A stretch of 64,000 bases of DNA from an uncultured Planctomycetia bacterium (GCA_964629655.1 CAZVQU010000002.1:524878-588877), one strand, 5' to 3'. Shown: positions 32,860 to 64,000, numbered from the stretch's first letter. A program made the numbers and translations. Notes: generated by a model not told the origin, from the sequence alone.

Positions 32860-33382
32860 CCTTCTTGGGATTTAATTTTTTTCTTTTCTTGCCTAATTCT
32901 TTTATTTGGTCTCTTAGCTTAGCAGCCTCTTCATACTCCTCAAGCTGGATAGCCCGACGCAGACGCTGATGCAATTCAGCAACCTTTAGTTGGCCGGAAA
33001 CCTTCTTGTCTAAACTAACCGGAGCCTTACCGGTATGAGTAGTCGCGCTATGAATTTTTTTTAACAAAGGCAGAAGAAATCTACGAAAAGTCTCATAGCA
33101 TTTTCCGCAACCCAGCCTCCCTGTTTTCTTAAAATCCTCATAGCTAAGACCACAAGAAGGACACCTTAATAAACCACGCTCAGAGGGCAAACTGCCTACC
33201 ATATCAGCAAGACTACCGAGAAAACCGGATATGTTAAGATGCTTATTCAGCTCATTAGTCTTAGCCTGAGCACAAACCTGACAAATATGCATCTCAACAA
33301 CCTTGTCGTTAATAATCTCGGTGAGATGGACTGTAGCATTAGTTTTATTGCAGATGTCACAAACCATATTTCTCCCTTTCAT
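32852..33382 (-). CDS. mcsA: McsA (zinc-finger plus UVR-domain activator of McsB)
   Basis: CDICN...CQVC and CPSCG...CGKC zinc fingers; C-terminal UVR motif (EEAAKLRDQI). Confidence 0.75.
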   Translation of the reverse strand: MKGRNMVCDICNKTNATVHLTEIINDKVVEMHICQVCAQAKTNELNKHLNISGFLGSLADMVGSLPSERGLLRCPSCGLSYEDFKKTGRLGCGKCYETFRRFLLPLLKKIHSATTHTGKAPVSLDKKVSGQLKVAELHQRLRRAIQLEEYEEAAKLRDQIKELGKKRKKLNPKKDV

Positions 33383-38509: not shown

Positions 38510-39295
38510 TTATCCTTCTAACTGGGAAAATGAGTCTAGCAAACTCTTAGTGTAATCATCTTGGGGATTTGCAAATAGCTCTTCTCTTGGCTTTATCTCT
38601 CTGACCCTGCCCTGATAAAGAACTACCACCCGATCACACAAGGTTTTTACCAAATCAAGGTTGTGGGTGATAAAAATTATAGTTAGTTTAAGTTCATCTC
38701 TTAGCTCTTTGAATAAATGAACTATCTGACTTTCAATAGTTACATCCAAAGAACTTGTAGGTTCATCAGCGATTAATATAGTCGGCTTTAAAGCTATGGC
38801 TACGGCAATAGCTATCCTCTGCAATTGCCCGCCGCTTAACTGATGCGGATAACTCTTTAATATTCTCTCCGGCTCTCTGACTCTAGTTTTTTCTAAGCAA
38901 TCAAAAATGATTTTTTCTCTCTCACCTTTACTGTTTATATTTAATTTGCTTTGAAGAATCTCTTGGAATTGATAACTAATGCTTAAGACCGGGTTAAAGG
39001 TACTAGCCGGCTCTTGAAAGATTAGACCGATTTGATTGCCCCTTAAGATTTCTGATTCTTTTTCTTCTGCTTTGAAGATATTTTTGTTCTGAAAAATTAT
39101 CTGACCCTCGGCCTTGCTGTCAGAAGGGAGAAGATTCAAAATTGAAAGGGCAAGAGTGCTCTTTCCGCTGCCGGATTCACCGACTATACCTAAGATTTCA
39201 CCCTCTTTAACTGTCCAGCTAACCTTCTTTAGGGCATCAACGTATTTGGTTTTGCTCTTGTAAGAGACCCTTAAATCTTTTACCTCTAAAATCAT
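38510..39295 (-). CDS. oligopeptide/dipeptide ABC ATP-binding protein (OppD/DppD-like)
   Basis: Walker A GESGSGKST; signature LSGGQLQRIAIAVA. Confidence 0.8.
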   Translation of the reverse strand: MILEVKDLRVSYKSKTKYVDALKKVSWTVKEGEILGIVGESGSGKSTLALSILNLLPSDSKAEGQIIFQNKNIFKAEEKESEILRGNQIGLIFQEPASTFNPVLSISYQFQEILQSKLNINSKGEREKIIFDCLEKTRVREPERILKSYPHQLSGGQLQRIAIAVAIALKPTILIADEPTSSLDVTIESQIVHLFKELRDELKLTIIFITHNLDLVKTLCDRVVVLYQGRVREIKPREELFANPQDDYTKSLLDSFSQLEG

Positions 39296-41727: not shown

Positions 41728-42126
41728 TTAGCTATCTTGCCACCAAATTTCCTTTCTTAGCTGATCACCAAAGTTGCTATCGAGATATGAAAGGATTCTT
41801 ACCCTATCCATGTCCCTTATTTTTGTAAATATAATACCGCTATAAGGGATATCTTCTGTCCTCTTCGCCCAAACTACCTTACCTAAAGCATCAATCTCAC
41901 TGGGTTCACCAGGAATATTAATAATTAACTTTACCTCCTCTCCAACCAGTGGGATGCTTGGCGAGCTTATCATAATCCCTTTTAAACTTAAATCCAGTAT
42001 TTTTGCTTCCCAAACCTTATTAGAAGTTGGAAAGGTATAGTCTAGAGGTATATCCACTCCCCAACGATACCCCATTCTTGTTTGATCCCTTCTTTCTTCT
42101 CTTCTCTCTTGTTTCATCTCTCTCAC
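41728..42126 (-). CDS. small PilZ-domain protein, GTG start overlapping the giant-gene stop (GTGA)
   Basis: R-rich N-terminus (RREERRDQTR) followed by ILDLSLKGIMI (DxSxxG); translationally coupled to the giant ORF. Confidence 0.5.
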   Translation of the reverse strand: MREMKQERREERRDQTRMGYRWGVDIPLDYTFPTSNKVWEAKILDLSLKGIMISSPSIPLVGEEVKLIINIPGEPSEIDALGKVVWAKRTEDIPYSGIIFTKIRDMDRVRILSYLDSNFGDQLRKEIWWQDS

Positions 42127-45100
42127 TCCTCTTCAAAAGTATCCCCGCTTTCCGAGTCAGGCCTAAAGAAAGGATCTGATTTTACCATTTTCGCTAGCAA
42201 GATCCACAATGATAACGGAAAACACAAAAGCCCTATCCAAGAATATACTTCGGGCACGGAAAAAGCCTGTAATAAAATATTATCTTGTGTTGTCTGAACA
42301 AATAGATCAATTTGACCTCCAATAAGCAATTCCGTAATAAGTATACTTAAGAGGGCAGCTGCAGGAAATATAGCTGCAGTTTCTAAAGCAATTCTTATTG
42401 CTCGCGTCTTTACGACATGCTTGATAGTTATGAAAATCGCTATGCCTAGAACAAATCCAACTGTTGCAATAATAATAGTCGTGCTACCTGAAGAACCAAA
42501 TTTAGATATCGTATGGTGTATATTTGAAATATGGAATGTCTGCCCTAAAGAAATATGAGGGTCGGTTAAAAGATAGTTTAAAGGAGCGTATCGCTCGGAG
42601 TGGAGGCTTTTTTCAATTCCAAGCAGACCTCCAGGAATCCACTGCACAAAAAGAGAAATAGCGCTCAACGGGAGAACAAAACCCAAAAATTGTACAATAC
42701 GACTTATATTACGCTTTAAACTTACAAATGATGCCATCGGAGAGGCGGCGGTGGCTTCATTCCCCACCGGCGAGCTGCCCCGTCGAGACTTTGTGCGTAC
42801 TACATCCGGGCTATTCGCTTTACGGACAGAATAAATCGCTGTTGGCGCAGACTCAGTGTTGTTTTCGATATTGGCCAGATATGTCCTTCCTCGAAATATT
42901 TCGGCAGTCACATCCATTTTTCCTTTTAACCTAAGAATATCTTCAGCTGCATCTAACGAATCCCCAAAGGCAGAATTCCAAACCAAGGCAAGGCCATCTG
43001 GCTTAAGAAGTGTTGGAAGACCCTGGGCAAACCGCCTCAAAATGGCCCCGTCATAATCATTATCCTCCCACTCCTCAAGGCTCTGACGGACTCTAGGACC
43101 GTCTGGGTAATACGTTGGCATATTCCAAATAATCCGATCAAATTTTTTATTGAAGACAGGCGTTCCCTCTGCAGAAATAATATTGTCATGTATCTTAGCT
43201 TCTACTTTAAAACCCGCAAGTCTACCAGACGCTCTTGTATTCGCAACTTCAAAAGGATTAATGCCGACGGCATAAATCTTTCGTGCTGTCCGCAATGAAA
43301 CAAACCAGGCGTCAAGGCCGTTGCCTGAACCACCGACTAAAACATCATGATCTTTGCGGACATCAAGTTTTTGGTTGACCGCCCTTAGATACTCCCAGTC
43401 GCAAAGAGAGTTTGATCCCGGATGATAGACAGTAGGAAAAACAGGGAGAATAGCATGATGCATATGGGCAGGATCTACTTCATTCAGAATAGACCCCCTT
43501 TCAACCTCTAAGCCGAATTTACTGGTATAAAATGGGTTGATATAAGGAAATCGTTCTTTCTTCTCAACCGTTACATAGATATACGGAACCCAGCGCGGCC
43601 GACGTTCAATCGCTCCGACAATCCCCCTCCGTTCTTCATAGGCAATTAAAGCTTTGTCTGTTTTCTGTATAACCTCAATAAAAGCATTCCATTTTGCCAC
43701 AGCCTTGGGATCACCCAACTGAGGCACGTCAAAATAGTATTCGCTGAAGTCCAGGTAGTGCGGTTTTCGCATCTTCTGATCAACCTGATAGCTGGCAGGG
43801 AGGACCGGATAAATGGCAATAAGATAGCCACGGTTGTCATACACAAGCTCATGATCTGTCGTATCAAAAAGCTCATAGGGTAGGATCTCTAATCCCTTCG
43901 GGGCTTTGTCTTTTTCTTTCAATGCAGGAACACGAATTCTATGAATTCTAAGACCATTCTCTTTTGTTGTGGAGATAAGCAGGGATTTATGAAGCTCCAA
44001 AACAGACAAGATATCCCAAGCAGGCATCCTTTTGACTTTTCCTGCAGCAGATTTATTCGAGCCTAAGGATGATCTCGATTGCTTCGACTCCACCGGCGAG
44101 CTGGACTGTACTTCCAATTTTGTTGGTTCTCTTTGAACATTGATTCTTGTGTCAAATTCTTCCGAAATCAGAAAAGTTTCATTAGCTGAAGAAACAATCA
44201 CAGATACTATTTTTTCAGTAATGTCGCTCATTTCTGGATGCTGCAGAACATTATAAATAATAGTTTCTATGCCCGGCCAGAAATCTTTCCCCACGAATTT
44301 CAAATCATGCCGTTTGAGCGCTGCTTCTAAGGTGTCAACGATAGTTTGTTTGCTTAGATCTAAAACCTCGATCAGAACTTCTTTTTTTAACTCTTCGAAT
44401 TTTTTTCTCAACTCTTCATCTTGACCTTTCGAAGCTATCAATTGTTCACTCAACCTTCTGCCGATAAATATGAACGGTGTAGTTTCTCTCGAAATAGATA
44501 AATCGCCCTTAACATAGAACCAATGCCACTCTTCTTGATCCGGTAAGCCATAAATATGCCTAGCAAGATCTTGGTTGGATAATGCATTAAATGCTGCCGT
44601 GGGTAGAATGACTATGTAGCCCCCGTTGTCAACATCTGTATAAACCTGAATATCTTCCGCCTCATTACCAATCCACATAGACTTATCATCTCCGGGAGGA
44701 GCAAACTTGCTACGCAAAATAGAAGTCATAAAATCATCTCCTTTAGCAAATCTTGCTAAAACGAGATTCTCTTCTGGGTCTTGACGAACATAGCAAGAAC
44801 CTGGGTAAGGCACGTTTGCAATTGGCTCCCTTCTTGTTCTAGACCGTATAAAATCAAATAATCTCATCGCTTCTTCTCTTGTAAGAGCAGGCTTTAACGC
44901 ATCTACAAACGCCTGCTCAAAAGCATCCCCGCCTTTGATATAGCTTAGGGAAGCTAACCTTTTTGCCGCATTCCATAACTCCTGTAATATTACCTTTTCT
45001 ACTCCCAACGGCGAGCTGGTTTGTAGACTGGTTGTTGTTGTATTTTTTTGCTGACCCAGCACCGAGCTGTCCCGGATTGAATCATCATTTTGAAGCCTTC

Positions 45101-48100
45101 TCTCAACCTCCGAGAATAACTTTCTGTAAAAACCATCACTACAAACCAATGTCTCTACATGTCCAAGACCACTCCCAATAAAGCTCATTTCAGCAGCTGC
45201 CGCAGGATACCAGTACTTTTTAACTATTTCGCTTGCTATGCATACTATAGTAGATTTTCCTATGCCATACCCTAAATGAGCAGTAGCGGTATCTACACTA
45301 ATAATAATCGTACTAAAATACATCCAGTATTTGAGAAATTTCTCTTGTCCATTTCTTAACATTGATCCCGAAGGTAAAAGAAACACCCAATCTCTGAACT
45401 CTCTGCCCAGATAACGATAGAAATCATCATAAGAATAAAATCTACCATCCAAACTCTCTATCGTTAAAGCAGTTTTCATTCCAAAGTTTTCTGCTAAAAA
45501 CCTTGCTATTCTTACACTACTTTTCCAATCCAGACTACGAGCCTTACTTTTTGACCTGCCATTAATAAAAATAAAATCTTCGCCTATTCCAATACCTATG
45601 TTTTCCAATTCTCTTCTGGCCACAATGCTTTCTTTGCTACCGTGATTAATAAATAAAGAATTGGAAGGATAGCCCATTAAGGATAACCCTAATTCATGAC
45701 CCAGATTGAAATCACGATAATACTGACAGTGCCTTATGCTTGCATTCTTACCACTCAATTCCCATATATGTCTATAATTTCTGGCAAGGCCTGGCGGAAG
45801 TAACAAATCCTCATGACTTAAAATAGCTAAATCAAATTCAGCCATCCCATTAATAGCTCTTATTGTATTATCCCAATTACATTTCCCGTTATCTTTTAAT
45901 ACAGGCAGAGGGATAAACATTTCTCCCTGTTTTTCCCAAATAAAGGGATTTCTGGTAACCATAGTTATCCTTGCATGAGGATACGCTACTAAAAACTGTG
46001 CTGACAAAGGTCCATTGAATATAATCTCATCACCGATATGTCTTTCGGGCATGAAGAATAGCACTTTATTTAATTCTCCATACCTTTCCCGCATAATTAC
46101 GCGTAATCGTTCAATACTCCTTCCGCTCATCACCGACGAGCTAGATTTTGTACTGCCTATCAATAATAATTTCGTGATTCCTAAGTCAGCTTTGACAACT
46201 TCTAGTTGGATCTTGGATAATCTAAACTTTTCATAAAAAATCTTACCCCAGAGCATCTGCTTCATAATATCTTGAGATAGTGGATGTTTAAGCAAAAGTG
46301 GGCATAAATTTTTTAGTAATTCCTCTATAAGTGTAGTCTGTGCAAGTCCAAGGCTAATCTGTCCTTTATCATCTTTCAAATAATTGTATTCATCCCTGTA
46401 AAAAGTTAACCACCTTCCTAATTTTATATCCTCTTGACTAAAATTTGGTGAAAGCTTAGTGAATTCTTCTGCTAAGGTAATTATCGATCTAATCTCTTCA
46501 ATGAATGCTTTAACTTTAATATTAAAAGGGAGTTCTTCAAACCGTTCGCCTATCCGTAAACATATAGCTGAAAGCATGCCTCTTTCTTTTAAAAGGATAA
46601 AATTAACCAGGTCGATCCATAAAGCACCCTCGTCATCAACATGACCAACCATAAATACCCCTTTTCTTCTTTCGCCTGTCTGCATATCTTTCAAGAAAAA
46701 GATCCAGCGAGTACAAATCCGTTCATCTTGCCATTCCCGTAAAATATTTTTCTTATGTCTATTGATTTGTTCTTTCGATAACTCTCTTTCTTTGTTTGTT
46801 TCTAAATCAATTTCCTCTAACTTAGTATGAACAACCATTTCATCGCTTAGCTCTTCTAAGCTCGTAGAAAATTCCAATTGAAATTTCTTACCATCTTTTG
46901 CAGTAATGATCTCTTTATCCATCCCTCTAACAGCCATAAGAATAGTTTCGGTACACTTTGGTAAAGTTAACTGCATAAGACAGTCGATAATACTTATTTT
47001 TGAACGGATTTCTTGCTCAGGATAGATGCTATATCGGCCCACCATTTGTTCAGGCGATAATCTTGCCTCTCGATCTGCCTCTATCCCATTTAGCTCTTTT
47101 TGCCAAATTTGTCTACAATCTTCTAAAAATTTATTTACCTCTCTTCCATCATTCACTTTAAGAAAGTTTTCCAATAGCCAATCAAATGAATCCTGGAATA
47201 AACTGAGTGTCTCTAACTCCTGCTCAATAAACCTCGCTACGAAAACAACTCTGCTTTCATTCCATATTACTTCTCTCAATTTTGTTTTCATGATCCCTAT
47301 TTCTTTATCAGTGATATGTCCCTCAATGGCACTGACTAACCGTTTGTCTAGACATCCTAGGGGATTTAGAAAACGTACATATTCTGCAACAATATCGGAA
47401 TCTATCCTAACCTGAACGCTAAATAATGTGGGAACATTGATATGCACTAATGGCGACCGGTTTTGTAAATCCGCTATCAATTGTCTCATTTCAATTTCAG
47501 TCATAGATGCCTCTTCTAAATCCTCTACTAAATTAATACAATCTTCTTGCGCAGGAAGTAGAAGCACCTTTTGAGCCTCACTGCTATCTTGCAATGCTTC
47601 AGGTGTAACTTCATCAATCAGCCCCCACTCTACGTATTTATCTAATTGCTTAACGCTTAATGTACGTGGTAAAGTCAAATTTTCTATAATTTTACTTCGC
47701 AGTGTCTTTTTGGCTTTTTGTTCACTAACTTCTGCCACCGACGAGCTGGTTTTCGCAGATTTACACACAGGTAAATCGCAGCGAACGGACTTTCCGGATA
47801 AATTATTAATCGCTTCTAAATATTCATTAAGTAAGTCTCCATTTTGAGAATCATTATCGCGCCAAACAGAAAGTTGTTCCTTAGTAAAAGAGTGTATGGA
47901 TTTTCTTTCAATATCCACAGATACTGCTTCTTTTAATATAGGGGCATTCTTCCCTACAACCGAAATACCTCCTAAGACTTCTTGAGTTAATCCATAATCT
48001 TTGCTAAACTTCTCAGCAAAACTACTCCTAATCTGCCTAAACAATTTGGCAATATTCCTAGTGAATTCTCCACATAAAACAAACATAGCATCAATGTCTG

Positions 48101-57100: not shown

Positions 57101-60100
57101 AGGTTTGGTCAAAGTGATTTTCATCCTTTAAAGGATCGGGAAAACGAACAGTATTGTTTTTATCCTCAAATTCTAGCCAAGGAGCGTGAACTATTAATTC
57201 CATAGTATTGTCTTTTGCAACATCTCTTATCTTCCTAAGATCTGAATCCTGCAATCCGTTAGGATCAATCACATATACACCATATTGCCAAAGCCGCTTG
57301 CCACTAGAGTCAAGATAAATCTCAACAGCGCCGAATCCTCTCTCCCTTACTTCCTTAATGGTATCTACAATATGTTGAGTTGAATCGTATTCGTGACAAG
57401 ACTTCTTCCAAGGCCAGAACAGTTGAGATGCACCTAAGATGAGTCCGGAGTCTTTCAGCTTAGCTAAAGTTATCGAGCTACCAGAGGCAGTTTTGTCCAC
57501 CGACAGTGGTCTGAAATGAGAGTGAATTTTTTCATCAGCCATGTAGACAAATAAGGCTGAGCTTTCCGGACGTGCAGACAAATACTTTAAATGTTTTTTA
57601 ACCACTTCATGGTCTTTTCGAAAGCAAACAGCTGACAATATTTTATCCAAAAATACTTCTGATCGCTCTGCCCCAAGTTTATTGAGAATCACGCATTCTG
57701 CAACAATTTGTAAAAACCGCTTCAGTTGCTCTAAATCAACTGTCTGGACTATTAACTCTGTTAACAACTCAAGGTCATCTCTCCTTGGACAATTAAACCA
57801 ATATTGTACTACATCGGTAATCGCTACCGGATCATGTTGCTGGCTTCTCTCTAAGATAGATAAGAACCGTTCATCCTCCCTAGCTTGCTCAAGTACAGCA
57901 AATAAATCAGGATGCAGCGTGAAGTTGATGCTACGCAGATATTGAAAGAAGTATATGAACGCTTCTTCTACCTGTGTAATACCACGCTGCACAAAGTGAT
58001 AAGGCCGGGAAGAAGCGAGGCACGATTCAAGCCAATCAGCAGTACTTATAATCTGCTCAAATAGATCTTCGGCTTTTGGTATATGGTGATTGGAAATCTT
58101 CCCCATGACCTCAGTTAACTGCTCAGGCGATAATTCTAAGCTGTGCTGGGCAACTATTTCCTGGACAATTTCTACTGAATATATCGGGTGGGCCTTGCGT
58201 AAATACTGCAATTGCTGCTTGGGAAGTTCACTCGGAGAATTAATCCAGCAAAGCAAGGTATTTGTTGTTTTACCCAAGTCATGAAATAACGCGCACACCC
58301 TTAAGACCTCTCTTTTAGTGCTAGGGAGAAAAAGTTGCTTTGCTAAGTAATCGGCTAAATCTGCTGTGGTTTGAACATGTAACCAAATATGATACGCACC
58401 GATAGGTAGCAATTCCTGTATAATTTTTTTTGCTCTTTCAAAACGACCCAATTCTGTAATGGACGAGCTGGAGAGAATGGCAGCATGCTGAACATCAGAT
58501 GCTGTACATTCCCTTTGTCTGCTCTTTACTTTTGCCGGTATCTTATTAATCCTGGCTTTGTTCAGCTGACCCTTTTTAATCATTATATATACGGTGTTGG
58601 CTGTTCCGCTAATTGACGAGGAAAATTTTTGCTTTTGTCTCACATAAACACGCCAGCCATAGTTCGATTTGGAAAGCGAAAAATCACTAGACGCCTGCGA
58701 AGCACCGGGCTGCCAGTCAGTTTCCAAATCTTTCCTTATATATTCTCTTATAAAATACTCCCACAACCTCATCTCTTCATTATGGATCTCATCTTTTGTT
58801 GTAAATAAACCAGCCTTGCCATTAAGAAAACTATCAACGTTTCTGTACTCACCTTCATCGATGACCAGAAAACCATCGGCTTTTATATTCTTGGCAATAC
58901 GGGAAAGAAAAATTTTATACCTCTTTAACATCACAAATGATGCTTTCTGATAATAAACGTCGATTTTCTTATCTAAACTCATCTTCTCCATATCTTCCGG
59001 TTTATAGGTAATCGAATAGGTTTTGGAAGCTTGGCCAAAAAATGTCCAATCAAAACGTATAGTTACTGAACCATCTAAGTTGTCAATTACTTTGATATTC
59101 TCAGCACCATCGCTTTTAAACCTATTGACTTCCATACTCTCCAATTCCGCAGCTATTTTTAGCTCAATTTCACGCATTCCGCCCATTATGCCGCCTCCGA
59201 AACCACTATGGAATTTGCCTTGTTTATATTCGTTCTTTATCCCTTGATTGTGGTGAAGCCTATGAGATTGGCTATCTTCATCATATAGTAAACACCATAA
59301 ACGATATGCATTCACACGATTTTGTTCGTAAAAATCTACTTGCCTTGCTCCTGTTGCCAAAATAAAGGTAGACCAATCAGCACCTGCGCATCCATAACCT
59401 CCAATAATATCCATAAACTCAAGGTTAACTATTTTTCTTATGCTTGTATAATAGCCAACCAAGAAAAGGTTTAACAGTCCATTTGCTATGGGCCTATGAT
59501 CAAGACCTAGTTCTCTAGCAATCTCTACTTGAGTACCTATATCCTTAACCTCAATAGTCTCTAATATATACCGAAGATACTGAAGTTCTTTTGAAAACTT
59601 ATCTGAGAGCGGTGAAGAACCAGAAAAAAGCAATTTTCCAGTTACCGTAATCTCCCGATTAACTTCTTTCTTTAGACGGTGTAATTCAAATTCAAGGGAA
59701 TTCGGAGACAAATAAAACACTGTTTTTAAACGAGATCTGGCAGTAATAAGTACCCCGTAACTCTCTTCAAATACTTTCTTCTTCCTAAAAATAACTCCTA
59801 AAGATAAAAGATTGCCCACAAAAATACGTTCAGCAGCAACTATCGTATCTATATCTATATTTGGATACTTGGCTAAAGCATTGTAAGTTACTGAATCAAT
59901 CTTATCGTTTAAAAGCTCCGCGTTAATTTCAGGTATGTCGTTAACGTCCAGTATGAAACGCCTGGTTACCATAGTAACAACAAGCCACTTAGTGATTGCC
60001 AACAGATAGTCTCCACGCTGAGAATCTAGCTCTAATATGCCTGATACTTCCCGGTTATAATCTTCGTCGTAGCCGTTTTCTATATATGCTTCTAAAAGAA

Positions 60101-63100
60101 TGACTTTCTCTAAAAGTAAGAATGCATTAGCGGAAAAACAATCTACCTCTCTGTTGACAGCAGAAAGGACACTCCTCCACTGGGCCTTATCAAATCCGGC
60201 TGTAGAAAATATATGCCTTATGCCGCCCTCGGATTTCCGACGGCCCAACATTTCTAAAATAAGCTCTCCTGCCTGTTCATATCTACCGGTTTCGTAGTAA
60301 AAATTAAAGTAGGCTATAATTTCTCGGTAAACACTGATGATCCTTGCCGCATTCCTTGAATCGACTCCGTCCTTTAAATCTGCAATTAGTTTAGGCAACC
60401 TATCTTTTTTTAAAAAATCACAAATCATACTGGATGATGATTCTTCCCAAGAAAGCTCCTCTTTAAATCTATCAGCTACACGAAATGCCCATTGAGGCCT
60501 TGTACTAATAATAGACCTTACCAATTTGTTGATCCTGCTTGCAGGAAGAGCAACATAAAAACCCTTAATCAAAATGAATTTTAATGCCTTTAATAGCCTA
60601 TTATTTGCGACTATGTATGGTTTTAAGTTTGGCGAAGATGACCCTGATATTCTATTTTTTAAACTATTGTCTAAAACTAAATCGTATTCTGGCGTGAAGG
60701 CATATATTTGATGCAAACCAAGAAGATCTTCTACAGGATCCCCTCTTTCTATTAAATTAATCTCTCTTGTCTTCTGATCAGCCCATATCTTAATCTTTAG
60801 ATCTGCTGAAAAACCATGCTCTTTGATGTATAAGGCTTTATACCCTTCAAGAATTAAAACCTCCACATTTCTATCGTTCATAAATACTCTCAAATCATCC
60901 CGTAGAGTATCCCAATCTATCATGCTCCGCAAATCTCCTTCGAGACGATAATCATCAATAGGCACTACCTGCAAATTTACATATCCGGAAAAAATATGTT
61001 TACAAAAGGTAGTTTTTCCAGCGGCAATATCGCCGTCAACGACTACTAAAATACTGCCCTCTGATTCAATTTTATTACTGTGGCTTTTTATTAATGCATA
61101 TATTTTGTTCTTTGCTTCCTTGGCCGGCACTTTTCGGCCAAAGAACATAGGAATACTGGAAGATGATCTCTTTTTATTTAAAACAGCTGCTTTGTCAAAA
61201 ATCCTATCTACATCAAGAGATTCAAATATTTTCCATAAGTCAGCGGCCGTAAATTGTCCTCCCGAAGCTACGAAAGTCCCGATATCGGGTAAATCTTCTC
61301 GATAATAGCCATGCTCTTTAGATAAAAACTCCGTAGGAACAAATATTCTCTTGTATTCATTACCCTTCCTTAAAATATAAGAATCGTCAAATTTAGAAAT
61401 CATACGCTTTTCAGCAACAAGTATCAAGTCTGCTTCTTTAGCTACGGAAGGAGAGCAGAATTTTCTTTGTCTCCCGTAAAGAAAATCTTCCATAATTCTA
61501 CTGTAAAAACCTTTGGCAATTAAGGATTGCCTCATCTCTTCAATGACAAGAAAGTGAGTTTTGCGGTCAATAGGCGCCGGCTGTCTTGTCCCGCAGGAAT
61601 CTATCTCGATCTCTCTGTCCGAAACCTTAAGCCTAAGATAATATTCCAATAAAGCACTCCTGAACATATTCGATGTACATACGGTAAGTATAGACACAGG
61701 CAAAGATACTTCATTTTTTAACATAGACGAGCTGGAGTGAGCTTTGATTGCCTCAGATACCACTTGGCTGAATACATCGGAATGGCTATTCCTGATAAGC
61801 GTGTGTAAAAAATCATGCTCTATTAATTCTGTTTTCCTACCTAACAACGCATCGAAAATATTTGAAAGGATACTCCTAGCATATTCGCTATCTAATGTTT
61901 GATCATCCAAACGAGATATCTTATGCAGGAAGGCTTTTAACTTATCTAAATTCTCCCTATTGATATGGCAATATAACTTCTCTAATAATATAATTCTCTC
62001 TTTTTCTTCGGCTGAAATAATTTCGCCCACAATACTAAGAATATCTTCTGCCTCATCAAGAACCTTTCCTCCCTTTGAATCTATTAATGCTAAGAGCTGT
62101 TCAATCTCAAAAAGCTCTTTATATTCTCCAGCTCTGGATAAAATTCTCCTGGCTTCTTCTTCATCCGGGACATCTTTTAACAACAGCTCCTTAAGCGCTT
62201 CATAATAAAACCATGCGGCGGTAATGTTATTTTTTAAATCCTCATCGGCCTCCTCTTCTGCCAAATTAAACTGTTCTTCTGCCTCTTTATAGAATTTAAG
62301 ATCTGCATAGAGACAAGCAAGTTGATAGTGTAACTTTGCCCTTACAAGAGGGCTCTTCTCCTGGACTATCCTGCGCAAATACTCATCCTTCATTGTGGCA
62401 TAGACCACCTCCACAATCTTTCTTTCGTAAGGCCGAGAAACATAATATGGCATAGTAACTGTCCTGGCATCATCAGATATCGATAGTTCGTGTAAAAGCG
62501 GAAGCCAATTATGCCCATTATCTTCAGTTGAACCAAAGGGTACTGTGGTAAAAGAAATATTCTCATGGATACCGGAAAGGTCTGCTGTGATAAGCCTCAG
62601 GTTTACCTCGCCCTCTGGATTTAGGGGTATATTGCACTTTTCTGCTTCTTGCTGCTCTTTTCTGGTAAGCTTTCTTGCCTCAGGATCATCTGCCTGCAAT
62701 GGATATTCCTGGTCTTCTTTACACTTCTGATGCGAGATGATGCGTGCTGAAAAATCCACCTCTCCATTTGCCTGCCGAACAGCGATTACTCCTTCAGCCG
62801 TACCACCTGCTCCGCCGCAGCCATCCAACTCATTAGCCAAGATAGCATTGACCGGCATCTGGTCGCCATCCCCGATTAAAGAAATCCAGCCGCCACGCCG
62901 GTTGTTGATTTTAAGCTCACCGGTGGTACTTTTAAGTACTTTCTCAAGCCTTAAGGAACCTTTTCTACCCACTCTAGCAAACCCCTCTGCCTCAGTAAAA
63001 AATTCTTTATATTTATCTTCAATATCTTCATATCTAATTTGTAGAGTCTTTAGTGCTTCGTTAATTTCTTTTCGGTGTCTGCCCCTCATAAGCTCAGTCC

Positions 63101-64000
63101 ATCTGATACGCCGTATATCTTCATACCTTCTTGCTTCAGCTATTCTTCGAAGGTTCTCTTCCAACGAAAAATCTATATCTACTCCGCTGTTCTTAGGTGC
63201 GAAAATCTTGTATAGATAGCAGGAATCGGGAAGTAAAATATACCCGCCCTCTTGTGCCTTTTGGATAACCAGATACCTGTGTGAGCCTATAGCAACGCAA
63301 GCAACATAACTAGCAAGATACGATTTTCTGGTTACTTCTAACGGATCATTAGCAGAGTCCATTTTGGGAAACGCATTCGGATCAAATAGCCTGGGCAAGC
63401 CATATACCATACCTATGGTAAGAGTGGATGCCTCATCCCGCGCGCCCTCAGCAGCCATATTTGCATTAACAACCGCTGCCAAGTTATACCATACCTCAGT
63501 AATACGCGTGGCTAATCTATCCGCCCATTTGCTAACCGGCTTCCAGTTTTTCGAACTTCTCATCCACACTTCCAGGGCTGCTAAGCCATACCCATGAACA
63601 AGCTCCGCTTCATCACGGTCAATTGCCTGTATTTTTTCTTCAGATAGTCCTCCCTCTCCCTGCCAAAGGATGTGTTTCTCTCTCACCTCCGCTACTCCAT
63701 AAAGATAGGGACTTATACCAGCTGGAAAGCTATGTTTATACTGCTCGTATAGGGCAGGTGGCTGAGCCTTCATTGGCGAAGAAGTTCTCTTTTCGAGCTT
63801 TTGAACTTCTTCAGGCAAATTCTTGAGAGTAGATAAAGAAGAAGAATTTATAATTTCTATTTGCCAAGTCGGATCATTTTGAAATATTTCTAGACTGTTT
63901 AGCAACCAATCGATAAGCAGAGGTAAATAGTCTGCTTGTAACTGCATAAATTCCTTGATATCGTATTGCGACCTATCTAAAATGTTAAAAGACCTTTTAA
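42123..64000 (-). CDS. giant membrane-anchored multi-enzyme mosaic protein (>7,274 aa; N-terminus beyond window edge)
   Basis: Single stop-free frame of more than 21.8 kb in an AT-rich genome. The frame is still open upstream of the ATG at 63947 through nt 64000. At least 12 recognisable catalytic modules are joined by Ser-run linkers (see domain entries). Confidence 0.85.
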   Translation of the reverse strand, partial: KRSFNILDRSQYDIKEFMQLQADYLPLLIDWLLNSLEIFQNDPTWQIEIINSSSLSTLKNLPEEVQKLEKRTSSPMKAQPPALYEQYKHSFPAGISPYLYGVAEVREKHILWQGEGGLSEEKIQAIDRDEAELVHGYGLAALEVWMRSSKNWKPVSKWADRLATRITEVWYNLAAVVNANMAAEGARDEASTLTIGMVYGLPRLFDPNAFPKMDSANDPLEVTRKSYLASYVACVAIGSHRYLVIQKAQEGGYILLPDSCYLYKIFAPKNSGVDIDFSLEENLRRIAEARRYEDIRRIRWTELMRGRHRKEINEALKTLQIRYEDIEDKYKEFFTEAEGFARVGRKGSLRLEKVLKSTTGELKINNRRGGWISLIGDGDQMPVNAILANELDGCGGAGGTAEGVIAVRQANGEVDFSARIISHQKCKEDQEYPLQADDPEARKLTRKEQQEAEKCNIPLNPEGEVNLRLITADLSGIHENISFTTVPFGSTEDNGHNWLPLLHELSISDDARTVTMPYYVSRPYERKIVEVVYATMKDEYLRRIVQEKSPLVRAKLHYQLACLYADLKFYKEAEEQFNLAEEEADEDLKNNITAAWFYYEALKELLLKDVPDEEEARRILSRAGEYKELFEIEQLLALIDSKGGKVLDEAEDILSIVGEIISAEEKERIILLEKLYCHINRENLDKLKAFLHKISRLDDQTLDSEYARSILSNIFDALLGRKTELIEHDFLHTLIRNSHSDVFSQVVSEAIKAHSSSSMLKNEVSLPVSILTVCTSNMFRSALLEYYLRLKVSDREIEIDSCGTRQPAPIDRKTHFLVIEEMRQSLIAKGFYSRIMEDFLYGRQRKFCSPSVAKEADLILVAEKRMISKFDDSYILRKGNEYKRIFVPTEFLSKEHGYYREDLPDIGTFVASGGQFTAADLWKIFESLDVDRIFDKAAVLNKKRSSSSIPMFFGRKVPAKEAKNKIYALIKSHSNKIESEGSILVVVDGDIAAGKTTFCKHIFSGYVNLQVVPIDDYRLEGDLRSMIDWDTLRDDLRVFMNDRNVEVLILEGYKALYIKEHGFSADLKIKIWADQKTREINLIERGDPVEDLLGLHQIYAFTPEYDLVLDNSLKNRISGSSSPNLKPYIVANNRLLKALKFILIKGFYVALPASRINKLVRSIISTRPQWAFRVADRFKEELSWEESSSSMICDFLKKDRLPKLIADLKDGVDSRNAARIISVYREIIAYFNFYYETGRYEQAGELILEMLGRRKSEGGIRHIFSTAGFDKAQWRSVLSAVNREVDCFSANAFLLLEKVILLEAYIENGYDEDYNREVSGILELDSQRGDYLLAITKWLVVTMVTRRFILDVNDIPEINAELLNDKIDSVTYNALAKYPNIDIDTIVAAERIFVGNLLSLGVIFRKKKVFEESYGVLITARSRLKTVFYLSPNSLEFELHRLKKEVNREITVTGKLLFSGSSPLSDKFSKELQYLRYILETIEVKDIGTQVEIARELGLDHRPIANGLLNLFLVGYYTSIRKIVNLEFMDIIGGYGCAGADWSTFILATGARQVDFYEQNRVNAYRLWCLLYDEDSQSHRLHHNQGIKNEYKQGKFHSGFGGGIMGGMREIELKIAAELESMEVNRFKSDGAENIKVIDNLDGSVTIRFDWTFFGQASKTYSITYKPEDMEKMSLDKKIDVYYQKASFVMLKRYKIFLSRIAKNIKADGFLVIDEGEYRNVDSFLNGKAGLFTTKDEIHNEEMRLWEYFIREYIRKDLETDWQPGASQASSDFSLSKSNYGWRVYVRQKQKFSSSISGTANTVYIMIKKGQLNKARINKIPAKVKSRQRECTASDVQHAAILSSSSITELGRFERAKKIIQELLPIGAYHIWLHVQTTADLADYLAKQLFLPSTKREVLRVCALFHDLGKTTNTLLCWINSPSELPKQQLQYLRKAHPIYSVEIVQEIVAQHSLELSPEQLTEVMGKISNHHIPKAEDLFEQIISTADWLESCLASSRPYHFVQRGITQVEEAFIYFFQYLRSINFTLHPDLFAVLEQAREDERFLSILERSQQHDPVAITDVVQYWFNCPRRDDLELLTELIVQTVDLEQLKRFLQIVAECVILNKLGAERSEVFLDKILSAVCFRKDHEVVKKHLKYLSARPESSALFVYMADEKIHSHFRPLSVDKTASGSSITLAKLKDSGLILGASQLFWPWKKSCHEYDSTQHIVDTIKEVRERGFGAVEIYLDSSGKRLWQYGVYVIDPNGLQDSDLRKIRDVAKDNTMELIVHAPWLEFEDKNNTVRFPDPLKDENHFDQTLRVAKELGMGLITLHLFNPSDTDGIVHFIQQATRNQITVGLENSRYNPYPVSDINSFLKGCVYHTNDEFVAAALRIYEQLSLEEREYFGITFDIAHANLSLDKARPLEEAILKSGIPLRSTHINQNMGIMDDHLPINHPEGTIPLLKYIGSLINRGYKGPVIQEVRGEVKPLEVLFPSSGLSSSPVEKPNANKPADSMETMRKEILSTSILCIIVFVKLAGEYIANRIILYAGSVWLISLDFVQGTDFFSVDALAVQNINGQKEEINQDFQLLIRTFKQMLHSYRKCIIKKVKKPQTKSSSPVGARFQSRTLLKIFNKILFFGNLKRYNGIKGQVQGKVTSSVAGGVFPPALFLKLVGQFKGWLRTVLKQKLFRIRLNKNIVITLDKIDNTIEIRAGPFTYIYVTYRYLDNPQNHIGNPLIESLQTLSFSSSSSVRKVGADINSEEFRVLQRAIKRRLHWWNVIQIGPVFIIREQHKKELPFKVRDRAKKHLLIVTEVNYSEVGQGIFGGRDYHGTSLSMARAMMRMDFTGRAVIGVGYGQLATHEIMARKLGAEKVLAIEKMKVNIGRSIGINGIQLGHTFRLIQLDLVKEFSRLIFEAGKFDIHEPIILANLGPTYLKEVNEKVIDLLANFPGGQLLLGGFFDHDGADDNALSFFDKVISPYLKRFSWLEVEKVTSHYISHYPERWGYLTYTIRNHDSLPDVSRYNQTSSPVRDRDKEILLEFCAKDKAGLMEDKESSSSSVAVGNSGLGNFIIPDLYEYFKLEYKLLTALYNLKRNAVSIGYAGKKREIYLIEWVQDSKRGRRGIDKQEPYCRESLRNIIALIAVLRATDDIIPGLFDKNSSFILGSTIHQASDLESDVDAMLAVNRELGVEERDMVSGLMDEIKMSFAHRFGACGLNFKRLRHIMYSQECWRTDINFRYAHKAMIYPFSRRMLNAWLMNQPSDKLLLQEYLKVLDALFTSSSSIRLLPAEMLPGALDAIRFGIDHRVVRECEQREARLGMPIGGELELRRKYKTKEDILSRISDETIRERVDVLPFYRDPFGYLEFNFRPSWSFRTQIDLLAKTVLEYTNIPNSDTHSVQFNLGIPRKDWDRFHEWGVKKEASKLMLAAVIAFISNDGIQNGVKVASIRKNRAKNVSISGQEYMHIEYGFARIREIYEVAKIIQYITKAIVSKHKAESGLSLSALEHSLAKFWSDQGQATLNASLERVLRYKPKIISYRPGSYRNIIPWRRGHKDEARNIKNSLRQILSESERISVQSYSSSSVCTRKGTLTRKLVKERFRGFKGVVVDFDQTMAYISRAFTGAFFALRFERIEEASPIGKIYYSIMLAADTVKLAALRLYSNRFPTSGNKATFYRMLLREIHLDEIVIRIKPNPEFHEAVRIILEHNPDCVFGICSVGVGEVIEAYLERIQEEGILTQGQFEVIMANYFELDSQDYFSGQTLSDVFIARDKELSLQGDTIIIGDNKDQKVFGELPYFVNIQAANWRTRLENVIKDKITSSSSLVDSLNGWKRKYIPVIGGRLWVSPAVLDPHYHNVQMGELLAWELENIIGPGDRVLDMGTGSGIIGIKAYQLGRSYVLGVDINPEAVNLARENYREFGLVSDVIESDLFEKISPGIVFDKITFSPPWFEHWNEPKSDSISSLDHAFYDPEYCTLERFIKEVHMYLNPDNINALSVIYITGRQIKTVLASLNDSRTLAIDSIKKFELSRVMGRRERKRRGHHRSKHWRIDNHVSVEKLRSEKLVIMTLKKVPRKVNIPEGAVSPAIRGGTENRMFHRPSGKKDVIRRESICPRTISGLINDPNADDWTIQNELAWRFEGYLNDEFVSGAVTFDGVGSIRGASSPGSLSPANGGASPIVRTKAYLEQQGNDAGAISKVVDFLDPASLLLQRMDELIIFVASGETCFEAVLAKAHPNKAFIISDIYSAPYYQFAEQFERGILPTQKMARALENKNVVTIRADVNDMFEHFPNNSFDKIVVIGSGSKINRPIINSLKLKVLSTKLKSNGELLIRPYKDNASEFSHLDIVPDGKILGFSTQQYSDPLGSQLYKWTSSKDNCSFDFDSPEYHGVYLEALKRASLIPLETSVTAASPVKDLAELPRDLLSSRVLFRSGLYYFLIGLSVASLMAFAAAKFENVWFIGFIPGLVLSGFSLSIALVLKVAKMLTNAKGYTDAPSYQLAVGPKVDFLRNQIKKQGFDIEIDDFEDWHAPLFMYKDEGVLKTNYYYLPFLPRLFLWIVTRYVIFHLKRIQSVRRDNTFGQLDDLEKCKTQVRSSSTVQAENSARGIERILLKRALRRKNRLLISNSGSVFNRVFLVSGTCLVEKWLMDGESIAIWARNELRIARERLDGVGAKIFIHGNRVIQEFVEVLGDADETSAGLLYLVSPEEGERLIDAYFEAILAEWRRGVFNSDFYLFNYGRNLMGEVVLFDYSQISDKYPQNLRVLTRLRDKLFGIANLRYTPQWLYDYYVSAATSFIYEFEEEFLGLPEDQLYWQRDIKEGVAFGKLGFPHPYPPEGHTISYVSLVDKRRGHDSRQSSSAVQKATEDIDGANRIISKAIRIAAGGSSSISSAVGVSSSKVAKEWVLSSVKMLKRHTMRIGRPISALEKDIEAGQITLVGAEAHFSHITAAVSDTNKIVQEWLTTKGKGIPVVIRDPALTAAHDIKNALSSMSETMQLAQMTCDEEDGKDIIKCCDELVRVTVSRLYRIKRILADLIRCANGKAPKKESFNLMEEINTIAKLFGHKVKEDNMQVEINIASNIWIYSVRNDIFSIFLNLISNAIDALEGNNNPEISIAVKKIEASIRITFSDNGSGIEKSVQKRLFQKFFTTKKHKGTGLGLSIVQGIIEKHGGAIDVASQKDRGTTFTITLPSDESSKSQRINDLRMEQQPSARIVGDLSSSSVKVKGRSLSETFDFGLEARLLSSLYQFPATYYTIQYKGGYRWGTKLQWGQSREVLRNVIAVIAILRKFEQMVPTSVDKNKSFMFGSTVKTTCAIDSDIDAMFVLCGEFTRNIAKLFRQIRSSFAEKFSKDYGLTQEVLGGISVVGKNAPILKEAVSVDIERKSIHSFTKEQLSVWRDNDSQNGDLLNEYLEAINNLSGKSVRCDLPVCKSAKTSSSVAEVSEQKAKKTLRSKIIENLTLPRTLSVKQLDKYVEWGLIDEVTPEALQDSSEAQKVLLLPAQEDCINLVEDLEEASMTEIEMRQLIADLQNRSPLVHINVPTLFSVQVRIDSDIVAEYVRFLNPLGCLDKRLVSAIEGHITDKEIGIMKTKLREVIWNESRVVFVARFIEQELETLSLFQDSFDWLLENFLKVNDGREVNKFLEDCRQIWQKELNGIEADREARLSPEQMVGRYSIYPEQEIRSKISIIDCLMQLTLPKCTETILMAVRGMDKEIITAKDGKKFQLEFSTSLEELSDEMVVHTKLEEIDLETNKERELSKEQINRHKKNILREWQDERICTRWIFFLKDMQTGERRKGVFMVGHVDDEGALWIDLVNFILLKERGMLSAICLRIGERFEELPFNIKVKAFIEEIRSIITLAEEFTKLSPNFSQEDIKLGRWLTFYRDEYNYLKDDKGQISLGLAQTTLIEELLKNLCPLLLKHPLSQDIMKQMLWGKIFYEKFRLSKIQLEVVKADLGITKLLLIGSTKSSSSVMSGRSIERLRVIMRERYGELNKVLFFMPERHIGDEIIFNGPLSAQFLVAYPHARITMVTRNPFIWEKQGEMFIPLPVLKDNGKCNWDNTIRAINGMAEFDLAILSHEDLLLPPGLARNYRHIWELSGKNASIRHCQYYRDFNLGHELGLSLMGYPSNSLFINHGSKESIVARRELENIGIGIGEDFIFINGRSKSKARSLDWKSSVRIARFLAENFGMKTALTIESLDGRFYSYDDFYRYLGREFRDWVFLLPSGSMLRNGQEKFLKYWMYFSTIIISVDTATAHLGYGIGKSTIVCIASEIVKKYWYPAAAAEMSFIGSGLGHVETLVCSDGFYRKLFSEVERRLQNDDSIRDSSVLGQQKNTTTTSLQTSSPLGVEKVILQELWNAAKRLASLSYIKGGDAFEQAFVDALKPALTREEAMRLFDFIRSRTRREPIANVPYPGSCYVRQDPEENLVLARFAKGDDFMTSILRSKFAPPGDDKSMWIGNEAEDIQVYTDVDNGGYIVILPTAAFNALSNQDLARHIYGLPDQEEWHWFYVKGDLSISRETTPFIFIGRRLSEQLIASKGQDEELRKKFEELKKEVLIEVLDLSKQTIVDTLEAALKRHDLKFVGKDFWPGIETIIYNVLQHPEMSDITEKIVSVIVSSANETFLISEEFDTRINVQREPTKLEVQSSSPVESKQSRSSLGSNKSAAGKVKRMPAWDILSVLELHKSLLISTTKENGLRIHRIRVPALKEKDKAPKGLEILPYELFDTTDHELVYDNRGYLIAIYPVLPASYQVDQKMRKPHYLDFSEYYFDVPQLGDPKAVAKWNAFIEVIQKTDKALIAYEERRGIVGAIERRPRWVPYIYVTVEKKERFPYINPFYTSKFGLEVERGSILNEVDPAHMHHAILPVFPTVYHPGSNSLCDWEYLRAVNQKLDVRKDHDVLVGGSGNGLDAWFVSLRTARKIYAVGINPFEVANTRASGRLAGFKVEAKIHDNIISAEGTPVFNKKFDRIIWNMPTYYPDGPRVRQSLEEWEDNDYDGAILRRFAQGLPTLLKPDGLALVWNSAFGDSLDAAEDILRLKGKMDVTAEIFRGRTYLANIENNTESAPTAIYSVRKANSPDVVRTKSRRGSSPVGNEATAASPMASFVSLKRNISRIVQFLGFVLPLSAISLFVQWIPGGLLGIEKSLHSERYAPLNYLLTDPHISLGQTFHISNIHHTISKFGSSGSTTIIIATVGFVLGIAIFITIKHVVKTRAIRIALETAAIFPAAALLSILITELLIGGQIDLFVQTTQDNILLQAFSVPEVYSWIGLLCFPLSLWILLAKMVKSDPFFRPDSESGDTFEEE
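42170..42710 (-). other. giant protein: C-terminal 4-5 TM helix membrane anchor
   Basis: Hydrophobic stretches IVQFLGFVLPLSAISLFVQWI, TTIIIATVGFVLGIAIFITI, IALETAAIFPAAALLSILITELLIGG and WIGLLCFPLSLWILLA. Confidence 0.6.
42860..43350 (-). other. giant protein: small-domain SAM methyltransferase module (amino-MTase type)
   Basis: Motif I VLVGGSGNGLDAW; motif IV IWNMPTY (NPPY-like). Confidence 0.5.
45080..46070 (-). other. giant protein: GT9 (heptosyltransferase-like) glycosyltransferase module
   Basis: N-terminal MPERHIGDEIIFNGPL; C-terminal ISVDTATAHLGYGIGKSTIVCI, resembling GT9 DSGPMHLAAALGTPTVALFG. Confidence 0.55.
47930..48230 (-). other. giant protein: minimal nucleotidyltransferase (Pol-beta-like) module 2
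   Basis: FMFGSTVKTTCAIDSDIDAMFV (GS-x9-DxD motif). Confidence 0.5.
48470..49280 (-). other. giant protein: GHKL/histidine-kinase-like ATPase module
   Basis: N-box LISNAIDAL; G1 SDNGSGI; F-box LFQKFFTTK; G2 GTGLGLSIVQG. The upstream dimerization/His region (EAHFSHITAA) is not a canonical H-box. Confidence 0.65.
50600..50770 (-). other. giant protein: internal TM hairpin (2 helices) in mid-protein
   Basis: LYYFLIGLSVASLMAFAAA and FIGFIPGLVLSGFSLSIALVL. Confidence 0.5.
51980..52460 (-). other. giant protein: HemK/PrmC-like amino-methyltransferase module
   Basis: Motif I VLDMGTGSGIIG; motif IV FSPPW (NPPY class). Confidence 0.6.
52600..53240 (-). other. giant protein: HAD-superfamily phosphatase module
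   Basis: Motif I VVVDFDQTM (DxDxT); motif IV IIIGDNKDQ. Confidence 0.5.
54350..54680 (-). other. giant protein: minimal nucleotidyltransferase module 1
   Basis: ILGSTIHQASDLESDVDAML (GS-x9-DxD). Confidence 0.5.
56600..57420 (-). other. giant protein: xylose-isomerase-like TIM-barrel (sugar-phosphate isomerase/epimerase) module
   Basis: GFGAVEIY, IVHAPW, ITVGLEN, FDIAHAN and STHINQN, the conserved strand-end pattern of AP_endonuc_2/xylose isomerase-like barrels. Confidence 0.55.
57950..58430 (-). other. giant protein: HD-domain phosphohydrolase module
   Basis: IWLHV...LRVCALFHDLGK (H...HD motif) with downstream His/Asp. Confidence 0.55.
60650..61080 (-). other. giant protein: P-loop NTPase/kinase module
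   Basis: Walker A VVDGDIAAGKTTF followed by a hydrophobic strand ending in D (Walker B-like, VLILEGY). Confidence 0.45.
61240..61700 (-). other. giant protein: low-molecular-weight protein-tyrosine-phosphatase/ArsC-like module
   Basis: P-loop ILTVCTSNMFRS matches C-x5-R(S/T), the LMW-PTP signature at the domain N-terminus. Confidence 0.5.

Follow-up and report, generated by a model that had tools for sequence, protein, structure and literature searches.

A giant Omnitrophota gene predicted to encode a membrane-anchored chain of enzyme modules joined by short serine-run junctions

Giant proteins of Omnitrophota have been reported to combine FBPase, PGM, aldolase, PPDK, HATPase_c and HAD domains with transmembrane (TM) helices, and it has been proposed that they are cleaved post-translationally, at points that are unknown (West-Roberts 2023, bioRxiv 10.1101/2023.11.21.568195). 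A 39,678-amino acid (aa) protein of V. archaeovorus LiM is cited in that work, as is the usage of Seymour 2023, in which proteins of at least 7,000 aa are called giant. A 2026 preprint (bioRxiv 10.64898/2026.06.07.730766), whose catalogue starts at 10,000 aa, describes 'multi-enzyme' giants with a Pfam Module 1 made of methyltransferase (MTase), HATPase_c, HAD and HD domains, and places 46% of the Omnitrophota long proteins in a 'TM-only, membrane-anchored cytoplasmic domain' class. Here we present a giant gene located on the minus strand of a 64,000-nucleotide (nt) stretch of DNA from an assembly labelled as an uncultured Planctomycetia bacterium (GCA_964629655.1, CAZVQU010000002.1:524878-588877; the whole stretch is hereafter called the window). 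We consider it likely that this is a single Omnitrophota gene for a membrane-anchored multi-enzyme giant of the published class, whose modules are joined by short serine-run junctions. The gene type is already known for Omnitrophota; we found the regular junction in neither of the two studies above, nor among the listed results of a broad literature search.

Scanning the six phases of the window revealed a minus-strand frame that is free of stops from 42126 to 63998, over 7,291 codons, the runner-up having 900 codons. The stop codon lies at 42123-42125 (whole gene, 42123..63998); at its other end the frame extends, still open, as far as the right-hand edge of the window. Since about 7% of random codons would be stops at the base composition of the window (39% GC), a chance frame is excluded, simple arithmetic giving a probability of about 10^-230. 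A preliminary description of the sequence had already argued that a stop-free frame of 7,274 codons could not be due to chance, and the frame scan and the list of open reading frames (ORFs) bear this out, the ATG-initiated ORF (42123..63947) encoding 7,274 aa. It had also stated that the protein is longer than this. The frame is indeed open at the edge, but greater length is only possible, as just 17 open codons separate the edge from the first in-frame ATG (63945..63947; residue M18 in our numbering, which counts from the codon at 63998). This ATG is a candidate true start: it is preceded at 4-5 nt by AAGGA, with a spacing identical to that found at the gene 38510-39295, and AAGGA-type motifs stand before about half of the window genes. 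A junction motif, TSSPM, is found at residues 72-76, just ahead of the first recognisable module. That module, which is GlpX-like, is internal and not N-terminal in the three relatives where its position could be judged, and the genes in the syntenic slot of relatives are 2-3 times longer than the one in the window. We regard a start at 63947 and a continuation upstream of nt 64000 as about equally likely.

The GC content of the gene, overall and at third codon positions (GC3), resembles that of the flanking genes. The reading frame is intact across all the junctions described below, there are no tandem repeats, and the sole element repeated within the gene is 15 nt long. That several public assemblies break at this slot indicates a region that is hard to assemble, which speaks for an assembly chimera or for separate genes fused in error. 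Such an artefact is nevertheless very improbable, given 21.9 kb without a stop, a uniform native composition and the presence of giant ORFs in the same slot in independent assemblies of relatives. Short-read assemblers normally use k-mers longer than 15 nt, and a mis-join is unlikely because the only repeated element is shorter than that. The gene is single and genuine, with a length of at least 21.8 kb.

About 25 modules, each 50-740 aa long and resembling a separate domain, follow one another in the encoded protein, and where profile searches define the modules, runs of Ser are found at their borders. Runs of three or more Ser occur 22 times, against 3.5 expected. When the variant SSP[VIML] is included, 27 motifs are counted, against 3.4 in shuffles, and a broader pattern gives 31. 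The residue that follows the run is V, I, L or M, or P and then V. At the DNA level, 14 copies of a 15-nt motif, YCCAGCTCRYCGGTG, which corresponds to S-S-S-(S/P)-V, span 42765..61736 on the minus strand (copy starts: 42765, 44091, 45006, 46131, 47736, 48384, 50259, 53298, 54870, 54960, 55797, 56544, 58458 and 61722). Fourteen junctions match TCCAGCTCGTCGGTG with at most 3 mismatches; all are on the coding strand and within the giant gene, and 0.56 matches are expected from shuffles. Resampling synonymous codons, with the protein and its codon usage fixed, gives an expectation of 0.48 and a maximum of 3 in 200 runs. CCAGCTCRTC is found 7 times (0.13 expected), and the AGC-TCG dicodon is used in 15 of the 87 Ser-Ser pairs, where 2.5% is expected. 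The 15-nt motif has a GC content of 73%, against 39% for the genome, and contains TCG, the rarest Ser codon (12%), as well as GTG, which represents 16% of Val codons. Conservation of the DNA is confined to about 15 nt, the sequences on either side being unrelated. A role of the junction in RNA structure was considered and rejected: the z-scores of 12 of the 14 junction windows fall between -1.0 and +1.4, and neither a common fold nor an Rfam family was found.

This uniformity raises the question of whether the junction is additionally a substrate for shuffling, its GC-rich nucleotide motif driving recombination or gene conversion of module cassettes. The excess of the 15-mer over both expectations, the AGC-TCG bias and the unrelated flanks all speak for such a role. 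So does the sole internal duplication of the protein, between two nucleotidyltransferase-like modules (NT1 and NT2; 30% identity, E=3e-25), in which homology spans from junction to junction. Moreover, the nucleotide core has a single match elsewhere: the near-identical ACCAGCTCTCCGGTA forms an in-frame junction in the closest relative, within a giant gene that is otherwise unrelated. The slot itself is also hypervariable, as detailed below. However, no recombinase or mobile-element gene is present within the window, and selection for rare codons, for example for translational pausing at domain borders, could mimic the pattern. A 15-nt motif is also a short substrate for RecA-dependent recombination. 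We therefore hold the shuffling role to be a tentative idea, possible but doubtful.

The peptide form of the junction is also found outside the window. The same peptide junctions border one module, M13, in four further proteins (P0122, P0126, P0124 and P0129), and they are enriched in P0122 (7 versus 0.7) and P0126 (5 versus 1.1). No enrichment was observed in the other giants examined, including the one that occupies the same slot in a relative (L014) and those of L002, L004/P0001 and L005. The junction codons are heterogeneous in other Omnitrophota giants. As the peptide is kept at the M13 borders while the codons differ, selection appears to act on the peptide. Taken as sequence comparisons, these data indicate that some Omnitrophota giant genes, in different genomes, have conserved the junction peptide and that its nucleotide uniformity is specific to the window lineage.

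Conservation of the peptide could mean that the S-S-S-(S/P)-(V/I/L/M) motifs are protease sites and that the product is a polyprotein cut into about 25 enzymes, some of them membrane-bound. The 27 motifs counted make the junction much more uniform than would be expected of a generic flexible linker, and the same M13 borders recur in independent Omnitrophota proteins in spite of their differing codons. The proposal of West-Roberts 2023 that giants are cleaved after translation is also in keeping with this idea. Still, we think it unlikely, for Pfam scans detected no protease domain in the 7,291 aa, other multi-enzyme giants, among them L014 in the same slot, lack the motif, and short Ser-rich interdomain linkers are common without any cleavage. 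Functional analogues of the arrangement are MARTX-type arrays and viral polyproteins, in which unrelated enzymatic modules are likewise split by short recognisable junctions; unlike these, the window protein has neither RTX repeats nor a cysteine-protease processing domain. Several roles are conceivable for the junction: it may serve in proteolysis, translational pausing or recombination, or may simply be a linker that gene conversion has made uniform. That it acts as an organising signal, either as a processing site releasing about 25 enzymes or as a cassette-shuffling junction analogous to exon shuffling in a prokaryote, strikes us as rather improbable.

The reading that we favour, a membrane-anchored multi-enzyme giant, rests to a large extent on the identity of the modules, all encoded on the minus strand. 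The N-terminal one, M01 (residues 83-731; 61806..63752), consists of a GlpX-like domain of FBPase fold followed by a helical/TPR-like tail. When this module was scanned singly, Pfam FBPase_glpX matched residues 176-316 with an E-value of 4e-11 and 42.7 bits (cut-off 27), covering positions 46-173 of the 307 in the profile. The motifs AEGARDEA, ANDPxEVT and GAGGTAE are kept in five giants. M01 is thus predicted to have the fold of the GlpX family, its role as an FBPase being putative. An HD phosphohydrolase module (residues 1847-2172; 57483..58460) matches Pfam HD at residues 1874-1991 (4e-7), and the xylose-isomerase-like TIM barrel that follows (residues 2175-2480; 56559..57476) matches AP_endonuc_2 at residues 2215-2468 (5.9e-12). 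M11 (residues 2734-3037; 54888..55799), previously described as SAM-MTase-like, is a PrmA-like class I MTase (NCBIfam, 1.1e-7) whose closest relatives, P0131-P0133, are bona fide PrmA proteins. A HemK/PrmA/MTS-type MTase (residues 3807-4145; 51564..52580) was recognised at residues 3845-3990 (PrmA 1.4e-12, NF011529 1.5e-20), and M24 (42777..44096) carries a HemK2/MTQ2-like MTase with an NMPTYY motif (residues 6875-7033; TIGR00537, 1.3e-9). The former had been labelled a HemK-like amino-MTase and the latter an NPPY-type MTase, which agrees with these matches, as do the earlier HD and TIM-barrel labels.

M19 (residues about 4953-5180; 48399..49358) had been labelled a GHKL/histidine-kinase ATPase in the preliminary description. 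HATPase_c was detected at residues 5070-5175 (2e-25) and the DHp domain was aligned as well, the alignments spanning the DHp and CA domains of AtoS, ZraS and KinB (AtoS/ZraS-like profile 4e-38; ZraS in the PDB 1.8e-21). Strings corresponding to the H, N, G1 and G2 boxes are all present (AAHDIKNAL, NLISNAID, DNGSGI and GTGLGL). M19 is therefore predicted to be a complete two-component histidine-kinase core; no cognate receiver domain was found in Pfam scans of the giant protein. A separate, conventional PAS-GAF histidine kinase of 897 aa is encoded elsewhere in the window (1923-4616, minus strand).

Other modules gave weaker matches. The LMW-PTP-like module (low-molecular-weight protein tyrosine phosphatase; residues 759-944; 61167..61724), which contains CTSNMFRS, matches LMWPc below the cut-off (E=0.002), and in a PDB search the top match and four of the five in all were LMW-PTPs (E 0.06-1.5), in line with its earlier label. 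The next module (residues 949-1119, GDIAAGKTT; 60642..61154) matches TsaE (8e-4) and dNK (0.016) over the P-loop region only; the P-loop NTPase part of its earlier label is thus weakly retained and the kinase part is not. NT1 (residues 3043-3262; 54213..54872), with a GS-x10-DxD motif, and NT2 (residues 5205-5417; 47748..48386) had been called MNT nucleotidyltransferases; NT2 matches NTP_transf_2 weakly (0.0039) and NT1 follows as its paralog, which is consistent with that name. M16 (residues 4150-4400; 50799..51551), the second MTase-like Rossmann module of the preliminary description, is weakly MTase-like (Methyltransf_31, 0.0014). In M14 (residues 3567-3802; 52593..53300) the strings of HAD motifs I and IV, DFDQT and GDNKD, occur in the right order, and the only profile match, YqeG HAD (IIIA), falls at motif I with 0.099; the HAD label is a motif-based one. 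The M14 homologs P0123 and P0130 have no Pfam match. A sub-threshold stretch resembling AceK kinase (9.5e-4) was seen in module M18.

Profile searches gave no family support for M06, M21, M22 and M23. The Rossmann/MTase-like label of M06 is unsupported, as is that of M22 (residues 5956-6327; 45018..46133), formerly considered a GT9 heptosyltransferase-like module: it has no Pfam, NCBIfam or PDB match, and hhalign against E. coli WaaF/C/Q/U gave a probability of 3.5% with 45 aligned columns, so that GT9 was rejected and the fold left unassigned. M13 (residues 3267-3562; 53313..54200), so far seen only in Omnitrophota proteins, is also unassigned; a profile of 8 sequences found no relative in Pfam or the PDB, and a glutamine-synthetase/amidoligase-like fold was rejected on the same result. 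In P0127 (656 aa; ENA), M13 lies behind an N-terminal hydrophobic segment and is fused to a histidine-kinase core 31% identical to that of the window protein, a fusion that hints at a sensory or regulatory domain.

In summary, every motif string quoted in the preliminary description is present in the translation, and about 10 of its 16 module labels have profile support, five resting on motifs, hydropathy or nothing and GT9 being lost; the GlpX-like module at the N-terminus, the regular junction and the recurrence of M13 were not part of it. Families above or near the cut-off are GlpX-like, HD, AP_endonuc_2, PrmA/MTS, HemK2 and HATPase_c, and none dominates by copy number. Profile searches show three to four predicted class I MTases and two paralogous, putative pol-beta-type nucleotidyltransferases, and LMW-PTP, P-loop NTPase and HAD phosphatase are weakly suggested. 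No PKS, NRPS, RTX, cadherin or Ig family was found in the Pfam scan of the 7,291 aa, as had been noted before, the protein also being devoid of tandem repeats. Two further interpretations were rejected. PADLOC returned only generic MTase and HD matches, which does not support a defence system, and GC3 per module (0.31-0.46, against 0.38 ± 0.03 in flanking genes) has no clear outlier that would point to a foreign origin, although it is mildly high in module M18.

Membrane topology was deduced from a Kyte-Doolittle hydropathy scan, which revealed six clear hydrophobic helices in two clusters. The first is an internal hairpin (residues 4417-4461; 50616..50750) made of two charge-free helices at 4417-4435 and 4443-4461, as previously proposed. 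The second is a C-terminal anchor (residues 7079-7291; 42126..42764) with four helices within 7101-7272, where four or five had been announced. The candidate N-terminus at residue M18 is acidic and does not resemble a signal peptide, the start itself being uncertain. As the helix clusters are even-numbered and no signal peptide is seen at the candidate start, the soluble modules would all lie on the same side of the membrane, and this side would be the cytoplasm since the modules need ATP, S-adenosylmethionine (SAM) and NTPs. We infer that the large modules are cytoplasmic.

This placement bears on the possibility that the protein is an extracellular, prey-directed effector of the 'archaeovorin' type. 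West-Roberts 2023 favours that interpretation for many Omnitrophota giants, and a GlpX-like module is among the domain types of those proteins. They resemble the window protein in their phylum, their association with the membrane and their FBPase/PGM/aldolase/PPDK/HATPase_c/HAD-type domains, which diverge strongly from the free-standing enzymes. Theirs is, however, an extracellular location. For the window protein we find such a role quite improbable: the lack of a signal peptide at the candidate start, the even helix clusters and the requirement for ATP, SAM or NTPs argue against it, and in the 2026 preprint the MTase/HATPase/HAD/HD vocabulary belongs with the 'TM-only' class facing the cytoplasm. 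In addition, Pfam scans of the 7,291 aa detected no C39, S8 or other peptidase domain and no dockerin, CBM, glycoside-hydrolase or attachment domain, in contrast to archaeovorin-type giants with their peptidases and carbohydrate-binding or -degrading domains. SecA_DEAD and the SecA preprotein-binding domain gave no match at E<=0.1 over the same length, and could lie upstream of the window.

The lysyl-tRNA synthetase (LysRS) encoded in the window is 87-92% identical to proteins of Omnitrophota metagenome-assembled genomes (MAGs), including 'Candidatus Susulua stagnicola' from the Ace Lake MAGs (PMC8542988). On the basis of this identity, the host is predicted to be an Omnitrophota bacterium related to 'Ca. 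Susulua'. Gene annotation confirmed the dense housekeeping flanks noticed previously: the neighbours are diderm genes comprising two PilZ genes, an Opp/Nik-type ABC transporter, LysRS, LolCDE, IlvE, McsA/McsB/ClpC and Mla, with LptFG, Alr, AsnB, MetRS and CysRS further away. Beside IlvE, an operon for McsA-like (UVR), McsB (ATP:guanido phosphotransferase) and ClpC proteins (29340-33382, minus strand) is also kept in the Omnitrophota loci L006-L016. The McsA/McsB/ClpC module for arginine phosphorylation and protein quality control is best known from Gram-positive bacteria.

Anchoring the comparison on the LysRS homologs of relatives showed that the slot of the giant gene is hypervariable, with 25,853 aa, at least 16,417 aa, the window gene or no giant gene among close relatives. 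The closest relative on a long contig (LysRS 91%; JGI Ga0120401_1000008, 290 kb) has a called gene of 25,853 aa upstream of PilZ, which in an NCBI assembly of that lineage is broken off at 14,105 aa (at least 14,105). The slot gene of the relative with 88% LysRS identity (L014) has at least 16,417 aa and is broken off at the contig start. In 'Ca. Susulua'-type contigs (LysRS 87%), the giant gene is absent and small genes, including an RHS fragment, are found instead. Several public assemblies end at the slot. Downstream of the giant gene, starting with the PilZ genes, the flanks share 88-89% nucleotide identity, which ends at the border of the giant gene. The C-termini of the slot genes (240-1,585 aa compared) are mutually unrelated, except for those of L012 and L013 (86% identity), and consist of HEAT-like repeats with a proline-rich tail, PD40-like repeats or another enzyme array; the C-terminus of the window protein is related to none of those compared.

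Several features of these loci deserve mention in their own right. In the 'Ca. Susulua'-type slot (L009-L011:4293-4673), a short RHS/YD-shell fragment, a TPR protein and a Tricorn/PD40-like protein are encoded, which could be remnants of another large gene. The contigs of L012 (3-1004) and L013 (3-719), from the relatives closest by LysRS (91-92% identity), end within a gene with PD40/TolB-like C-terminal repeats. Motifs recognised by eye in L014 (1-4546) suggest an enzyme array with Nudix, CoaBC-like, transglutaminase-like, CoaE-like P-loop and HAD modules, and this slot gene has no Ser-run junctions. In the closest relative, an additional gene for a 171-aa multi-TM protein (L007:4772-5287) separates the giant gene from PilZ; in the window, the giant gene ends in its own four-helix anchor and abuts PilZ, and no sequence similarity to the 171-aa gene was found. 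In L016 (LysRS 85%), a Fic/DUF4172 gene (744-1856) separates the two PilZ genes and a nucleotidyltransferase/HEPN pair (6091-7117) stands ahead of LysRS, both of which are small mobile-type insertions in the conserved flank.

Searches for homologs identified shared modules. When the first 1,190 aa were used as query in a word-index database of 5.8 billion proteins, a single match was obtained, a 1,909-aa fragment from an Elusimicrobia-labelled MAG. This is weak evidence of orphan status because very long proteins are apparently absent from that database: a 1,584-aa query with the exact sequence of a stretch of the 25,853-aa protein found no match there. With this limit on the word-index database, no close homolog of the giant gene was found by the word-index and HMMER searches. 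A scan of GTDB species genomes gave four loci in Elusimicrobia-labelled, Endomicrobiales and Omnitrophota MAGs, with frames of at least 5,018, 3,936, 1,909 and 799 aa, which have in common with the window protein only the GlpX-like and helical module, about 630 aa at about 30% identity. The Elusimicrobia/Endomicrobiales-labelled giant ORFs among the relatives (L002, L004/P0001 and L005; from at least 1,909 to at least 5,018 aa) resemble the window gene in this homologous module and in their TM segments; they differ in all other modules, which in the GlpX-sharing ORFs include PPDK, enolase, PGM, a second GlpX, class I aldolase and an ICL-like module, and in having no Ser-run junctions. In L002 (6848-21901), the ORF of at least 5,018 aa from a 60% GC 'Elusimicrobia' MAG contains a complete PPDK and a permuted enolase, whose C-terminal TIM-barrel domain (3954-4241) stands ahead of the N-terminal one (4350-4459). 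Two metagenome scans, with the alignment of the GlpX-like module and with the C-terminal fragment of L007, gave no matches.

An exhaustive HMMER search with residues 2734-3802 against 1.84 billion representatives returned only 12 matches, 8 of them to M13. The named M13 matches are all Omnitrophota MAG proteins, and several are fragments of large proteins. Two of them use the vocabulary of the window protein (M13, PrmA/MTS MTases, GlpX-like, HD) arranged differently: P0122 has the order TPR-HTH-M13-PrmA-like-GlpX-like and P0126 the order M13-MTS-HD. Because the slot is hypervariable and other Omnitrophota giants draw on the same modules but arrange them in another order, the best-supported reading is that the giant genes of this lineage evolve by module shuffling, as far as such comparisons can suggest.

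Together, these results place the window protein close to the multi-enzyme, TM-only giants of Omnitrophota. It is assigned to the same phylum, many enzyme families tile one polypeptide with none dominant, TM helices are predicted without a signal peptide (according to the hydropathy scan and with an uncertain start), and the MTase, HATPase_c and HD vocabulary of Pfam Module 1, with a putative HAD, is present. It differs from the giants of the 2026 catalogue by its size within the window (at least 7.3 kaa, against a threshold of 10 kaa) and by the Ser-run junctions, which are unmentioned in that preprint. The likeness to giant multi-enzyme genes of Omnitrophota suggested in the preliminary description was correct by taxonomy and architecture, and its view of a membrane-anchored mosaic, made of unrelated enzymes that act on small molecules or transfer phospho, methyl and nucleotidyl groups, is upheld. 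Several points weigh against this interpretation. No family is detectable for seven modules (M05, M06, M13, M21, M22, M23 and small ones), and single-sequence AlphaFold models are of low confidence (pLDDT 34 for M14 and 32 for M22). A borderline hydrophobic pair at residues 2504-2545 could alter the topology, and the side on which the modules lie could differ if the gene extends upstream and encodes a signal peptide or additional TM segments there. The portion within the window (7,274-7,291 aa) is below the 10,000-aa threshold, its frame being open at the edge, and SecA_DEAD and peptidase domains, common in 'archaeovorins', were not found in this portion by Pfam.

If the protein is the giant that we propose, it would form a membrane-tethered array in which many phospho-, methyl- and nucleotidyl-transfer activities are co-expressed and co-localised, with a fixed stoichiometry among the enzymes, and modules would be gained, lost and reordered by shuffling within the variable slot. 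Such a mix of modules would be compatible with enzymes that modify phosphorylated sugars or nucleotides, or else a component of the envelope.

Whether Omnitrophota giants persist as one polypeptide or are cut, how they were assembled in evolution and where their domain borders lie are all poorly understood. The window gene is tractable in this respect, with about 7.3 kaa in a conserved and easily recognised syntenic slot, and this slot offers a natural experiment on giant-gene turnover among close relatives. The regular junction provides a natural guide for segmenting the protein for structure prediction or expression, as well as a concrete site at which proteolysis, translational pausing or recombination can be tested. 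Should either role of the junction, in processing or in recombination, prove true, it would supply the cleavage or segmentation points that West-Roberts et al. call missing.

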